Source: a virus
Taxonomy: Duplodnaviria > Heunggongvirae > Uroviricota > Caudoviricetes
IMG/VR virus record: IMGVR_UViG_2617270940_000004
Location: 1 to 19,706 of that record
Direction: 5' to 3' (one strand)
Length of the DNA stretch: 19,706 nucleotides
Part shown: in pieces, positions 11,409 to 15,672 of the stretch
Position numbering within the stretch: position 1 is the stretch's first letter
How the letters are laid out: every line of letters starts with the position of its first letter
Notes under the pieces: generated by a model
Databases searched by the model: none
Seen by the model: only the letters and a program-made list of their open reading frames with translations
What the model was told of the DNA's origin: nothing
Translations under genes and position numbers: made by a program

Positions 11409-11828
11409 CTACTTTGCGGCGTCTAACAATAAGCCGCAATTTTCGCTCATGTATGCCGCAGTTGCCGGATTGCCTCTGTCATTATTCGAATTGTTCATTT
11501 CAGGGTGAGCGTCCCAGGCCACTGATTCCTGAGATGATAGATAGACGGCAAAGTCGACGATTTCATCATCTCCGGTTTTAACGTTGCCAAGCAATTCATT
11601 TGCCTTTCTCCAGTGCTTCAGCGCGAGAATTCTGAACTGTTTTGCATTTTCAGCAGGCACTGCACTGGATTTGTCTGTGTAGATATTCGATATGTCGGCA
11701 TAAAGAGCGCATTTAACATAGCTGGTTGCCCTGCCGGTCTCTTTAAAACGTTGCTCTGTGTTGTTGGCGTAGACATTCACAGCAAAAGCGCTGGCAATTC
11801 CCAGCAATATAATTTTCTTCATCATCAT
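11409..11828 (-). CDS. Hypothetical secreted protein with signal peptide
   Basis: N-terminus MMMKKIILLGIASAFAVNVYA is a signal-peptide-like sequence; the only substantial minus-strand gene outside the IS elements; AT-rich; no clear SD. Confidence 0.5.
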   Translation of the reverse strand: MMMKKIILLGIASAFAVNVYANNTEQRFKETGRATSYVKCALYADISNIYTDKSSAVPAENAKQFRILALKHWRKANELLGNVKTGDDEIVDFAVYLSSQESVAWDAHPEMNNSNNDRGNPATAAYMSENCGLLLDAAK

Positions 11829-11971
11829 TACTCAATAAGGAGGCGACAAATATCTTACGTGTAGTTGTCAGTTGAGTATTAAGCAAACTCAATAAACTTA
11901 TAAGTATCTCCCTGTGCAGCCTGTGAATCCTTATTTATTACCTACTCAATTTTGAAATAATAACACCAACA

Positions 11972-11989
11972 AGAAAACAATTTGTTTAA
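11972..11989. promoter_or_regulatory. Family B palindromic site with conserved upstream ATAACA box
   Basis: AGAAAACAATTTGTTTAA preceded by TAATAACACCAACAAG; ~10 nt upstream of the 12000 start codon. Confidence 0.55.
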
Positions 11990-11999
11990 TGGTGCAGTC

Positions 12000-13685
12000 A
12001 TGAATACAGCCCTTTCCATCATTGACGCTATCACTCCAAACACTGATATCGACTACCGGCAGGAAATGAACGTTATCCACGAAATTGTGGCCGAGTGCGA
12101 GAAAGAGATCGCATTCATGCATCAGGTTCACGACTTCGTTTATGGCGACGAACGCCACAGCATGATTAACCGTCTACTGCGGCTCAATCACCGGCCGGAC
12201 GACGAGCGCACACGCTTTAACAGAACCTGGCTGGACAAAGTCGACCTGGAATGGGTGAAACAAAATATCTGGGCCGAGTACTGGAAGAAGGTCACGGATA
12301 TGACCAACGTTCTGTTGATCATGCCAGCATCCCGCCGCGACGAGTGGCGTGAACAGTTTATCGAGGGCAAGCAGGAAACGATCAAGACTGACAGAACTGG
12401 CTATCAAATGAAGGTTAAAGAGTTCGTTGGTGTACCTGAGTTCAAAGCAGAAACGGTCATACCAACGATGCTTAATTTGCTGAATGACAGGCACAAATAT
12501 CTCTCTGAGCGCGTGTATGGCTTGTTTAAGGCGTTGAGTCCTGCTCACAAGACCAATAAGACGAACGGCTTCAGCGAGCGTCTGATCATCGCCGACTGCA
12601 TTTCCGATTTCTGGCGGGACAGCGTCAGCGTTAACTACCGGAAAGAGGATTACATAGACGACCTGCGCGTCATGTTGCATTTCTTTGCACACAAAGAATT
12701 TATCACCATCAATCGCACGGCCGAGATGCTGTCAGCTGCGTATCGAGCAAATGACTGCCAGACCGGCGACTGGATGAATGTCGACGGAAACCTGATGCGT
12801 GTGAAGATGTTTAAGAACGGCAACGTTCACTTTGAAATACATCCTGACGTAGCCTGGAAGCTGAATGAGGTGCTGGCTTACAGTATGCCCGCTGCAATCC
12901 CGGCTCCATGTCGTACTGCGCCCAAAACACGGGCACCAAAACAGTTCGGGTTAATCCAGAAGACGATCTCCGAGCCGGTGCGTACTGCGCTTCGCGACGG
13001 GCGATCTGGCAATGACAAACGCGTATGGTACTTCTCTGATTCCGGTCTCCAGAAGTCACAGGTGGAAGAGCTGGAGCGTACACTGAGCTTTATTGGCGGC
13101 GTGCAGGAGAACAAGCACTGGCAGTTCCCGTATGAGATCGGCCATACGCTCAATACGATTGTGGCCACCGGCGTAATACCGGATACAAAATCACACCAGT
13201 TCTACCCTACCCCGCGTTTGATAGCGGAGTACGTTGCCAGAGCCATTGAGCTGAAACCAGGTGAGAAGCTGCTGGAGCCTGAAGCCGGGCGTGGAGATCT
13301 GCTGGCCTGCATCGACGCCAACCCGGAAGACGTCACCTGCATAGAAGTCGCGCCTCTCTTTGCTGATATCCTGCTTGGCAAGGGGTACACAAATACGGTC
13401 TGCTGCGACTTCATGAAGTGGTCTGAGAACAACGCAGGCTATCAGTTCGACAAAATCGTCATGAACCCACCCTACTCTCTCGGTCGTCACAGAGAGCACA
13501 CATTGGCCGCGCTGGGGCATCTGAAAGTTGGTGGGCGTCTGGTAGCAGTGCTGCCGGGCGACGCGCCAATTCTAAACTGGATGACGCTGGATAATTACGT
13601 TTATGCCAAAGGGAAGTCGTTTACTAACGTGTTTGAAGACACCGGGATTACTGTCAGCGTATACGTTTTTAAACGCGTTAAATGA
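12000..13685 (+). CDS. Large orphan N6-adenine DNA methyltransferase (C-terminal SAM-dependent MTase domain, N-terminal ~400 aa domain of unknown function)
   Basis: C-terminal FYPTPRLIAEYVA ... LLEPEAGRGDLL (motif I) ... DKIVMNPPYSLG (motif IV NPPY). No adjacent restriction gene. Start set at ATG 12000. Confidence 0.7.
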   Translation: MNTALSIIDAITPNTDIDYRQEMNVIHEIVAECEKEIAFMHQVHDFVYGDERHSMINRLLRLNHRPDDERTRFNRTWLDKVDLEWVKQNIWAEYWKKVTDMTNVLLIMPASRRDEWREQFIEGKQETIKTDRTGYQMKVKEFVGVPEFKAETVIPTMLNLLNDRHKYLSERVYGLFKALSPAHKTNKTNGFSERLIIADCISDFWRDSVSVNYRKEDYIDDLRVMLHFFAHKEFITINRTAEMLSAAYRANDCQTGDWMNVDGNLMRVKMFKNGNVHFEIHPDVAWKLNEVLAYSMPAAIPAPCRTAPKTRAPKQFGLIQKTISEPVRTALRDGRSGNDKRVWYFSDSGLQKSQVEELERTLSFIGGVQENKHWQFPYEIGHTLNTIVATGVIPDTKSHQFYPTPRLIAEYVARAIELKPGEKLLEPEAGRGDLLACIDANPEDVTCIEVAPLFADILLGKGYTNTVCCDFMKWSENNAGYQFDKIVMNPPYSLGRHREHTLAALGHLKVGGRLVAVLPGDAPILNWMTLDNYVYAKGKSFTNVFEDTGITVSVYVFKRVK

Positions 13686-13704
13686 GAGGTAAATACTTAC
13701 CTAA
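13685..13704. promoter_or_regulatory. Family A palindromic site (putative operator)
   Basis: AGAGGTAAATACTTACCTAA, starting at the last base of the methyltransferase stop codon. Confidence 0.5.
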
Positions 13705-14437: not shown

Positions 14438-14673
14438 ATGATCTGCTTGTCGAGCGAGTCTCCGCTTTTGTTAAGTCCCCGCTGAATAATCCCCTCACCC
14501 GCTGTGAGCAGATGGAGCTGGCAAGGTGGTTTCTGCGTATCCATGAGCAGATGGAAGTTTTTAAACAGTTGCCGGATCTGCCCATTACAGACGGCCAAAT
14601 TCAGTGTGCCACTTCAGTACGGTCGACGATGACAACGACGCAAACCTGCTTTTCGTCAAATCCGAAATCATAA
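14434..14673 (+). CDS. Hypothetical small protein, possibly frameshifted at its 3' end
   Basis: ATG 14434 with GAGAGG upstream, translationally coupled to the previous gene; C-terminal ~25 aa look non-protein-like while another frame looks protein-like (see findings). Confidence 0.4.
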   Translation: MNDLLVERVSAFVKSPLNNPLTRCEQMELARWFLRIHEQMEVFKQLPDLPITDGQIQCATSVRSTMTTTQTCFSSNPKS

Positions 14674-14719
14674 AGTTGCGCAGGGAGAGAGAGAAATCGA
14701 CGCAGAGCAGGCCCGCAAT

Positions 14720-14935
14720 ATGTGGGACGAGGCAGAAAACGCTGATGACGTAAAAGAAAGTTGCTGCTGTTTCGGTGTCGGTAACGAACTGCTGAGTCTG
14801 TTTGGTGACGATCCGTGGTATGCCGGTTGGCCAACGGTGCCAAACCCCAGATACCAATACCTGGAACGTATCATGAACGCGGTACGTGATGGGCTGAAAG
14901 AGCTTCACAATCAGATGAGAGAAGCAATCGGTTAA
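14720..14935 (+). CDS. Hypothetical small protein, or 3' part of a frameshifted gene
   Basis: 71 aa ORF MWDEAENADDV...; frame is open from 14633 with no start before 14720 and no clear SD. Confidence 0.35.
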   Translation: MWDEAENADDVKESCCCFGVGNELLSLFGDDPWYAGWPTVPNPRYQYLERIMNAVRDGLKELHNQMREAIG

Positions 14936-14973
14936 GTGCTATAGTCAGGCGCTTTTATATTTATGGAGTGAAT

Positions 14974-15672
14974 ATGAAAAATATCCTACTGGCATCATTG
15001 TTGGTGGCATCGCCGGCTGTATTTGCAGCCAGCTTTGACTGCCAAAAGGCTTCGGCAGAAATCGAACACAAAATCTGCGATAACGAACGCCTGTCAAAAT
15101 TAGACGAACAACTTAGCTCTACCTATTCCAACGCACTCAAAGCAAACCCGGGGGACGCAGACGCCTTAAAGACGGTTCAGCGTCAATGGGTAAGTATGCG
15201 TGGAAAACTCACTGGTGATAAGGCTCTGGAGTTGGCTTATCTAATCCAAATTAATGGCCTCAAGAGTTTGGATGGTTCGGCCAGCACTGCGGTGGTCAAT
15301 GAGACACCAAAGCCTGTGCAGAAACAGCCTGAAGTTCAGGAAAAGACAAGCAAGGCAGACACAAAGCAGGCTGAGAGCGGTAAAAAGCTAACTCTGGAGT
15401 CATTCCGAGCTAAGTATATTGAAGTTGACGGTGAATACTACAGCACGACATCCCTTCCCAGAGGGAGTTCGTTCTTGTTCACCTGCGCAAGTCGTATCGC
15501 AGATGACCAGGTGAATATTTGGAAGAAGGTGGCAGCCAAAGAGGGCAAGATCGATCTCTTCTTTGAACTTGAGAATCGAATACATACCGCAATGCTGAAT
15601 GCCAATTTTCAGAAGCTAAATAGTGATTTAACTAAAACAGGCATTTGCGATCTGATTACTGCTGTTCCGTAA
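14974..15672 (+). CDS. Secreted protein with DUF1311 / LprI-like (lysozyme-inhibitor family) N-terminal domain
   Basis: Signal peptide MKNILLASLLVASPAVFA; FDCQKASAEIEHKICDNERLSKLDEQLSSTYSNAL ... QRQW fits the DUF1311 pattern as recalled; GGAG 5 nt upstream of ATG 14974. Confidence 0.5.
   Translation: MKNILLASLLVASPAVFAASFDCQKASAEIEHKICDNERLSKLDEQLSSTYSNALKANPGDADALKTVQRQWVSMRGKLTGDKALELAYLIQINGLKSLDGSASTAVVNETPKPVQKQPEVQEKTSKADTKQAESGKKLTLESFRAKYIEVDGEYYSTTSLPRGSSFLFTCASRIADDQVNIWKKVAAKEGKIDLFFELENRIHTAMLNANFQKLNSDLTKTGICDLITAVP

Follow-up and report, generated by a model that had tools for sequence, protein, structure and literature searches.

Two predicted exported proteins borne by accessory cassettes of an SSU5-type phage-plasmid, one of them a two-domain variant of the DUF1311 family

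The DNA considered here is a 19,706-nucleotide (nt) stretch from a virus of the Caudoviricetes (IMG/VR record IMGVR_UViG_2617270940_000004, positions 1 to 19,706), referred to below as the window. Among its genes are two whose products begin with export-type N-termini: P234, the 232-amino-acid (aa) product of positions 14974-15672, and P139, the 139-aa product of positions 11409-11828 (Table 1). Both open reading frames (ORFs) are intact in every homologue examined, and both are real genes under purifying selection. Judged by its sequence, P234 is best described as a phage-associated two-domain DUF1311 variant, and we suggest, tentatively, that both proteins may act at the envelope of the cell that carries them.

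The 4.5 kb around the two genes match 572 plasmids in PLSDB, 557 of them predicted to be non-mobilizable, from E. coli, Klebsiella, Enterobacter, Salmonella, and Citrobacter; most of the matching plasmids listed measure about 105-120 kb. The best match, at 98.8% identity, is pEC21Z137-115K, which is typed IncFIB; identity of the region with Salmonella phage SSU5 amounts to 90.6%. Because of these plasmid matches and the identity with SSU5, the window can be assigned to the early/accessory arm of an SSU5/pHCM2-type phage-plasmid, giving a name to the mobile element that a preliminary description of this DNA had proposed as host of the two genes. The accessory arm contains thyA and genes for a dihydrofolate reductase (DHFR) and an exonuclease, together with dam, an RNase H gene, ant, a DUF4942 methyltransferase gene, and Ead/Ea22-like genes.

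Table 1. Features of the two cassettes and their surroundings in the window. AF2, AlphaFold2; dN/dS, ratio of nonsynonymous to synonymous substitution rates; IS, insertion sequence; SPase I, signal peptidase I
Feature	Position	Strand	Basis
IS1 (InsA/InsB frames), left window edge	47-351	-	ORF list
Palindromic GC-rich hairpin TAGGGGGCAAAGCCCCCTA, candidate bidirectional terminator	11388-11406		Terminator scan, RNA folds
P139 gene, 139 aa (RefSeq 138 aa)	11409-11828	-	ORF list
Divergent spacer between P139 and DUF4942 methyltransferase genes, 33% GC, with one AAACAAnnTTGTTT copy at 11972-11990	11829-11999		GC, promoter scan
Fusion of DUF4942 and N6-adenine methyltransferase (phrog_6263)	12000-13685	+	Profile searches
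TGcTATAGT, candidate extended -10 element, 29 nt upstream of P234 start	14937-14945	+	Motif scan
P234 signal peptide MKNILLASLLVASPAVFA, predicted SPase I cut before ASFDC (VFA/AS)	14974-15027	+	Hydrophobicity, homologue conservation
P234 DUF1311/LprI-type helical domain, aa 19-100	15028-15273	+	PF07007, alignment, AF2
P234 linker, aa 101-138, basic, low-complexity, K/E/P/Q/T-rich	15274-15387	+	Alignments, dN/dS, AF2
P234 C-terminal domain, aa 139-232, and stop codon	15388-15672	+	dN/dS, searches, alignment
Hairpin AAGGCCAC-TATTT-GTGGCCTT, candidate bidirectional terminator	15680-15700		RNA folding
ydfZ-like gene, convergent with P234 and directly downstream of it	15728-15931	-	RefSeq annotation in pEC21Z137 and SSU5, alignment
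IS2-like element of the IS3 family (orfA/orfB), right window edge	18433-19706		ORF list

Translation of P234 starts at the ATG at 14974, the same start as in RefSeq, and is preceded by a ribosome-binding site (RBS), GGAG, at 14965-14968, 6 nt upstream. The signal peptides of both proteins were assessed by rules and by conservation across homologues. Each N-terminus follows the n/h/c pattern and has V-x-A at -3/-1; in the P234 and P139 alignments alike, signal sequences vary from homologue to homologue and the export-type pattern is retained. In P234, where MKNILLASLLVASPAVFA precedes ASFDC, a short charged n-region is followed by a 10-residue hydrophobic core (Kyte-Doolittle 2.6), with V at -3 and A at -1, and hydrophobicity analysis revealed neither a lipobox nor a further hydrophobic segment. 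The signal is kept in homologues and in distant phage relatives, for instance gp026 of Klebsiella phage Marfa (MKTILTVIALTIASVSFSAQA before ASFDC). Some database names present the protein as a 'putative lipoprotein', a reading rejected here because the lipobox is absent and the residue at +1 is not Cys.

Downstream of the signal, P234 carries the motif FDCQKA..E..IC....L..LD..L...Y...QRQW. The preliminary description had pointed to this DUF1311-like motif, which is indeed present in the translation, and to a signal peptide, which is borne out by the n/h/c pattern, the VFA/AS site, and conservation. The Pfam comparison that it suggested yields a marginal match to PF07007 (LprI/DUF1311) above the gathering score (24.8 bits against 22; E 2.9e-5), limited to P234 residues 25-80 and to profile positions 1-70 of 106, and so covering only part of the domain. 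By Pfam's own threshold P234 is thus a member of the DUF1311/LprI family, if a marginal and partial one, and its distant relatives reach 17-22 bits against the same profile. A helix that follows the matched segment aligns with classical DUF1311 members in the MAFFT alignment only. The first cysteine pair of the family, C23 and C35, is retained; the second is gone, P234 reading RGKLTGDKAL where classical members read RNxCxDxxCL, and this is true of the whole phage subfamily. P234 accordingly lacks the full set of four conserved cysteines, making two disulfides, that PMC7933661 gives for the DUF1311 family.

Structure prediction and wider searches add little to this assignment. In the AF2 model the N-domain comprises four helices with a predicted local distance difference test score (pLDDT) of about 64-88 over aa 21-100; the whole protein averages 50.7 and is poorly modeled outside the N-domain. 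A Foldseek comparison of this model with the PDB gave no match below E 4.7 and no fold could be assigned. At E values up to 0.1 no Pfam or NCBIfam family other than PF07007 matches P234, and no MliC/PliC, Ivy, or PliG/I domain is found. An N-terminal match to the NCBIfam entry 'A1S_1983 putative colistin resistance' (17.8 bits against a cut-off of 150) is far below threshold and was not used, and the defense models of PADLOC match neither P234 nor P139. In PHROGs the protein falls into phrog_4675, annotated as of unknown function, and RefSeq calls identical proteins 'lysozyme inhibitor LprI family protein'. The DUF1311-type part makes up about 80 of the 214 mature residues, about one third of the protein, and the name 'lysozyme inhibitor' is weakly founded and overstates what is known.

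Alignment of close and distant homologues gives P234 a four-part layout of signal peptide, DUF1311-type domain, linker, and C-terminal domain. The linker, with an isoelectric point (pI) of 9.2, is variable in length and sequence and is modeled by AF2 with pLDDT <35. The C-terminal domain, of 94 residues, has invariant G, S, C, N, and C columns (Y[IV]xxDGxxxS ... C ... N ... C), so that the conserved cysteines of the mature protein number two in the DUF1311 domain and two in the C-terminal domain. Compared codon by codon with its counterparts in SSU5, phage ev099, and two prophages, P234 as a whole has a dN/dS of 0.14-0.20. Within the protein the values are 0.56-0.69 for the linker, 0.13-0.23 for the DUF1311 domain, and 0.04-0.06 for the C-terminal domain, its most constrained part, and by this ranking the database label belongs to a third of P234 that is less constrained.

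The C-terminal domain has no Pfam match at E values up to 1, and an exhaustive search with it retrieved 10 matches among 1.84 billion cluster representatives, one of which (P0082, 943 aa, with repeats) looks spurious. Searches of the PDB by profile and sequence, with the full P234 family, alignments of its two domains and of the C-terminal domain, the N-domain by itself, a classical DUF1311 protein, and the P139 family, returned chance or low-complexity matches only, to designed proteins resembling tetratricopeptide repeats and to picornavirus VP4. As far as these searches reach, the C-terminal domain is an orphan domain without known relatives. It also appears to act as an independent module, because in P0084, another of these 10 matches, the domain stands behind a lipoprotein signal and a different N-domain.

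The P234 gene is mobile in its own right. Homology with lambdoid phages, including ev099, extends from about 45 nt 5' of the ATG to just past the hairpin that follows the gene, and this module of upstream sequence, ORF, and hairpin is 82-84% identical in lambdoid prophages. Such sharp limits of homology indicate that the gene and hairpin move as a cassette. The hairpin separates P234 from the ydfZ-like gene that converges on it, forms the 3' limit of the cassette shared with prophages, and folds with -16.6 and -17.7 kcal/mol (z -2.5 and -3.8). Hairpins follow both the P234 and the P139 genes; both are stable, and canonical T-runs are lacking. At the other end of the P234 cassette, the TGcTATAGT element lies within the part conserved in SSU5 and lambdoid prophages and is kept in five contexts. 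The pattern TGNTATART has a single match in the window against 0.63 expected by chance, which is not significant alone, and because one match does not exceed chance we infer a promoter of P234 here as a candidate only.

Full-length P234 orthologues (at least 80% identity) occur on about 127 of the 572 plasmids that share the region; by host, plasmids with an orthologue number 82 in Enterobacter, 27 in E. coli, and 16 in Citrobacter. Of 5426 complete E. coli genomes, 124 carry the gene as well; its 108 chromosomal copies belong to lambdoid prophages that occupy the ybhC-side lambda attachment site, and are flanked there by ead/Ea22 on one side and xis-int on the other. On the phage-plasmid its neighbors are Ead/Ea22-like genes and ydfZ. 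Farther afield, relatives with the P234 layout are found in Aeromonas jumbo phages, with orf288 of ZPAH1 scoring 20 bits against a hidden Markov model of the C-terminal domain, and T4-like Klebsiella phages have a weaker version of it. Marfa gp026, a DUF1311 gene of the early region located six genes from spackle, reaches 9 bits over the first third of the same model only and is treated as weak.

Two side observations concern the DNA just upstream of P234. The products of 13748-14437 (229 aa) and 14720-14935 (71 aa) correspond to positions 11-103 and 217-285 of the 287 in phrog_3451, and from this correspondence the pair looks like a mosaic or split Ead/Ea22-like gene. Between the Ead/Ea22-like region and P234, SSU5 has genes for two hypothetical proteins, an Eaa protein, and an HD-domain phosphohydrolase, all of which the window lacks.

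P139 begins with MMMKKIILLGIASAFAVNVYA followed by NNTEQ, an N-terminus of the Sec/SPase I type with predicted cleavage after residue 21 (VYA/NN) and no lipobox. The mature protein of 118 aa is acidic (pI 5.3). Its alignment reveals the invariant motifs Y.KC, FR.LALKHWR, GD.EI..F, WD..PE.N, and NC..LL and two invariant cysteines, C40 and C131. AF2 predicts a helical bundle (pLDDT 84.9) for which the fold search found no specific match, and the protein belongs to no Pfam or NCBIfam family; it matches phrog_7437, of unknown function, at E 3e-12. Homologues amount to 19 cluster representatives in total, profile search included, and distant alleles differ with a dN/dS of 0.26. Remote homology between P139 and P234 was considered and rejected (hhalign probability 1%).

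The P139 gene is rare, being found on 13 of the 572 plasmids, in 6 of the 5426 E. coli genomes, and at 4 IMG/VR loci. SSU5 lacks it through an indel of about 490 bp and has instead a short spacer bearing a terminator of its own. Divergent alleles, 54-58% identical, occupy exactly the same slot in opposite orientation between a phrog_5508 gene and the DUF4942 methyltransferase gene, the latter remaining about 90% identical beside them, and in a Citrobacter chromosome one allele is found at a prophage end. The hairpin next to P139 is placed between its stop codon and that of the plus-strand gene 10811-11383, and it folds with -14.7 kcal/mol on the plus and -17.2 kcal/mol on the minus strand (z -2.4 and -3.0), with poor T-runs on both. 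A promoter scan upstream of P139 found no convincing sigma-70 promoter; one candidate, TTGAGT-18-TATATT (11835-11806), overlaps the start codon and was rejected.

The preliminary description had presented P139 as a signal-peptide protein that was probably acquired separately. The N-terminus agrees with this, as do homologues that share invariant motifs and two cysteines, and separate acquisition is supported because the gene is absent from SSU5 and from most related plasmids (13 carriers against 572). Other parts of that account need amending. P139 is not the only minus-strand gene, since the ydfZ-like gene and the IS1 at the left end are read from the same strand, and instead of lying between convergent terminators it shares one hairpin with a convergent gene and is bounded on its other flank by a 5' promoter spacer. 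The gene is AT-rich as claimed, at 45% GC with 33% in its upstream spacer against 50% for the window, but not distinctively so, as the P234 gene (46%) and the ORF at 17039-17665 (43%) are equally AT-rich.

Phage morons, such as bor and lom of lambda, are small accessory genes inserted between conserved phage genes, and they often encode envelope proteins. P234 and P139 both show presence or absence among otherwise collinear elements, with sharp breaks of homology, as expected of a moron or cassette. They resemble morons in having a lower GC content than their neighbors, a candidate terminator of their own, and variable presence. They differ in that a promoter of their own is only a candidate for P234 and none was found for P139, and in that P234 lies within the pL operon in prophages.

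The best explanation that we can offer for these observations is a tentative one, to which, taken as a whole, we give a probability of roughly 40%. Within the early/accessory arm of the phage-plasmid, P234 and P139 would each be an independent, self-contained moron, encoding a soluble product that is exported by Sec, cut by SPase I, and given its disulfides in the periplasm. On the model of DUF1311 immunity proteins, P234 may bind and neutralize a peptidoglycan glycosidase acting in the periplasm; candidate targets are a lytic transglycosylase of the host, a muramidase effector of a type VI secretion system (T6SS), and the muramidase that a superinfecting phage carries in its tail or virion. 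Neutralization would shield the cell wall of the carrier, which would amount to exclusion or immunity, and the C-terminal domain would supply a second binding function. P139, an orphan periplasmic helical bundle with presumably one disulfide, would probably be another factor of conversion or exclusion at the level of the envelope. This explanation is favored for P234 because the common thread among DUF1311 proteins is the binding of periplasmic enzymes of the muramidase or lytic transglycosylase type, and envelope protection or exclusion through binding of a peptidoglycan hydrolase is plausible on the strength of that analogy. Phage exclusion in the manner of Spackle, orphan T6SS immunity, and control of a host enzyme in the manner of ScwA are all possible sub-cases.

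For single-domain DUF1311 proteins, immunity to T6SS effectors that target peptidoglycan is the better-supported role. For example, co-expression of the DUF1311 protein Etsi4 of enterohemorrhagic E. coli rescues the toxicity of Etse4, a T6SS effector that attacks the cell wall from the periplasm (PMC12981562), and DUF1311 proteins of Pantoea and S. Dublin are predicted to confer immunity from the position of their genes beside lysozyme-like or transglycosylase T6SS effectors. Like P234, these proteins combine a Sec signal with a DUF1311 domain; their action is periplasmic, and some are orphans without an effector. Unlike P234, which is two-domain, phage-borne, and without an effector neighbor, they are reported to have the LprI domain only (SED_RS06230, the one of stated size, about 146 aa) and are encoded next to effectors or within T6SS islands. 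P234 has neither an adjacent cognate effector nor a T6SS island around it; orphan immunity of this kind is possible. Spackle of T4, which inhibits the gp5 tail lysozyme and blocks superinfection (PMC7677548), serves as a working analogy only. It is phage-encoded, small, alpha-helical, and periplasmic, with a signal peptide and one disulfide, a gross description that P139 shares, and searches by sequence, profile, and fold found no similarity of P234 or P139 to it.

Several points weigh against envelope protection by binding of a peptidoglycan hydrolase. P234 matches DUF1311 only marginally and over part of the profile, and it lacks the second conserved disulfide; ScwA illustrates that a DUF1311 domain need not inhibit lysozyme (PMC7933661). 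No gene for a peptidoglycan hydrolase or T6SS effector lies beside P234 in any context examined (phage-plasmid, SSU5, prophages). The carriers, which comprise siphoviral phage-plasmids, lambdoid phages, and T4-like and jumbo phages, have no obvious virion muramidase in common, and this argues against a target for self-exclusion of the Spackle type; Marfa carries both spackle and a DUF1311 protein, so the two are not simple substitutes, which tells against such self-exclusion as well. Placement of P234 in the delayed-early pL operon of lambdoid prophages speaks against lysogenic conversion, as it would mean expression in the lytic cycle rather than in the lysogen, unless TGcTATAGT works as a promoter. 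AF2 models P234 badly beyond the N-domain (mean pLDDT 50.7), and the fold search with that model came up empty. P139, for its part, is an orphan family offering no functional clue beyond export and moron-like behavior.

The same evidence bears on four other explanations. One, suggested by the mention of lysozyme inhibitors in the preliminary description, takes P234 for a true inhibitor of c-type (animal) lysozyme that shields the carrier enterobacterium from the lysozyme of its host; the family name in Pfam and RefSeq and the gut Enterobacteriaceae that carry the gene speak for it. LprI (Rv1541c) of M. tuberculosis, the founding member of PF07007, resembles P234 in being exported and in its DUF1311-type domain, the family signature FDC...IC...LD..L...Y...Q..W being present in P234. 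LprI is, however, a lipoprotein with an MliC domain, whereas P234 has an SPase I signal, no MliC, no second cysteine pair, and an unrelated C-terminal domain. As related in papers that cite the original work, LprI was reported to be a lysozyme inhibitor (Sethi et al. 2016), and it is the only 'LprI' inhibitor presented there with biochemical support. The extra MliC domain of LprI is deemed the likely basis of inhibition by the authors of PMC7933661, and it is this domain that P234 lacks. Moreover, the DUF1311 protein ScwA confers no lysozyme resistance (PMC7933661), and the P234 layout also occurs in lytic Aeromonas and Klebsiella phages, for which protection against animal lysozyme makes little sense. 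We regard this explanation as very improbable. Hardly more credible, and if anything less so, is the notion that one or both ORFs are decaying passengers with no present function for the element or its host: both genes are dispensable and absent from many related elements, and in this lineage the neighboring ydfZ-like gene starts with ATA. Yet the ORFs are intact in all homologues examined with dN/dS well below 1, motifs and cysteines are invariant across P139 alleles only 45-58% identical in the family alignment, and the P234 cassette has spread over 124 complete E. coli genomes.

Two further explanations are unlikely but deserve more attention. P234 may modulate peptidoglycan hydrolases of the host, for example MltD or Slt, and so tune wall turnover during phage development, which might keep cells from lysing too early or from without, or ready them for lysis. 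The precedent is Salmonella ScwA (SL1344_0490), the protein without effect on lysozyme resistance, which regulates levels of the lytic transglycosylase MltD and lyses cells when overproduced (PMC7933661). ScwA is a soluble periplasmic DUF1311 protein that was horizontally acquired, all features it would share with P234, and its disulfides are made by DsbA (PMC7933661). Host lytic transglycosylases are also the one target class common to all types of carrier phage, and the P234 gene occupies early regions, namely the lambdoid pL operon and the T4-like early cluster. Against this, ScwA has 275 aa, is chromosomally encoded, carries its DUF1311 domain at the C-terminus with all four cysteines kept, and is otherwise unrelated to P234, and no phage DUF1311 protein is known to influence the timing of lysis. 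Alternatively, and with a similarly low probability, the DUF1311 domain may be a scaffold for a C-terminal domain active on a target other than a hydrolase; that domain could mask a component of the outer or inner membrane needed for phage adsorption or DNA entry, or bind a small molecule or sugar. Constraint is by far the strongest there (0.04-0.06), the domain stands apart in P0084 behind a lipoprotein signal and another N-domain, and the flexible linker suggests a tethered binding module; however, it has no relative in Pfam, in the PDB, or by fold, and purifying selection is clear in the DUF1311 N-domain as well (0.13-0.23). Neutralization of a periplasmic peptidoglycan glycosidase by P234 is kept here as the preferred, if tentative, explanation. 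A more ambitious form of it appears doubtful: proteins with the P234-type layout of signal, cysteine-poor DUF1311 domain, linker, and C-terminal domain would form a family of their own, specific to phages, that counters muramidases or mediates exclusion in the periplasm and is spread by cassettes among SSU5-type phage-plasmids, lambdoid prophages (in the ea22-xis slot), and large lytic phages of Aeromonas and Klebsiella, Spackle-like in action and unrelated to Spackle, with P139 as a second, independent exclusion factor.

The surroundings of the two cassettes offer observations of their own. Where SSU5 has an ATG start, the ydfZ-like gene downstream of P234 has ATA, and its RBS is one base off that of SSU5; the copy in pEC21Z137 shares the ATA and keeps the SSU5 RBS. 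A perfect 14-nt inverted pair of the repeat motif described next (15701-15714 and 16016-16029) flanks the gene and suggests an inverted or inserted cassette. An intergenic repeat of about 50 nt, 'ATAATAACAC...AGAAAACAAnTTGTTTAA', has AAACAAnnTTGTTT as its palindromic core, for which 13 matches with up to 3 mismatches were found against 0.23 expected. Besides the copy listed in Table 1, repeats lie at 9803-9821, 10774-10792, 15698-15716, 16014-16029, 16391-16406, 16442-16460, and 18006-18021. Several copies stand 10-70 nt upstream of plus-strand starts (ant, 10811, the methyltransferase gene at 12000, and 16470), and the block may serve as an operator or promoter in the early region of SSU5-type elements.

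The methyltransferase gene next to P139 is 90-96% conserved across SSU5-like elements, and both of its neighbors vary. Its product has a weak PADLOC match to mad2 of methylation-associated defense (E 2.4e-14) that covers the methyltransferase core only. Farther to the left, the DHFR gene (3386-3862; thyA at 1859-2974) stands in the position of the SSU5 DHFR gene, an equivalence by position only; the SSU5 gene was recently named dfrA51 and raises the minimum inhibitory concentration of trimethoprim when cloned (PMC12217456). At about 17700-18400, just before the IS2-like element, no gene is annotated and neither an Rfam family nor a tRNA was found; GC skew falls to -0.31 with an AT skew of +0.32, words resembling ACCCA and CCCAC are abundant, and a 10-nt tandem repeat in two copies occupies 17965-17985. 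IS content differs among near-identical elements, as the closest plasmid, pEC21Z137, has other insertions instead of those in the window, including ISKox3 after ydfZ.

For specialists little of this will come as a surprise: P234 is already known at the level of annotation, P139 is an orphan, and exported morons are common in temperate phages. Neither gene bears on a long-standing open question. Useful outcomes are nonetheless a corrected functional label, a defined cassette, and a defined conserved C-terminal domain, and it is already established that the database name covers only a third of P234 and that the most conserved part of the protein is an uncharacterized domain. P139 neatly illustrates an exported moron that is rare, diverges fast, and keeps to one fixed slot, and rare exported morons often prove to be exclusion or defense factors. 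Should P234 indeed neutralize a wall-degrading enzyme, it would represent a widespread, cassette-borne envelope defense in phage-plasmids and lambdoid prophages of clinical Enterobacteriaceae, and would provide the first function for the phage branch of DUF1311.

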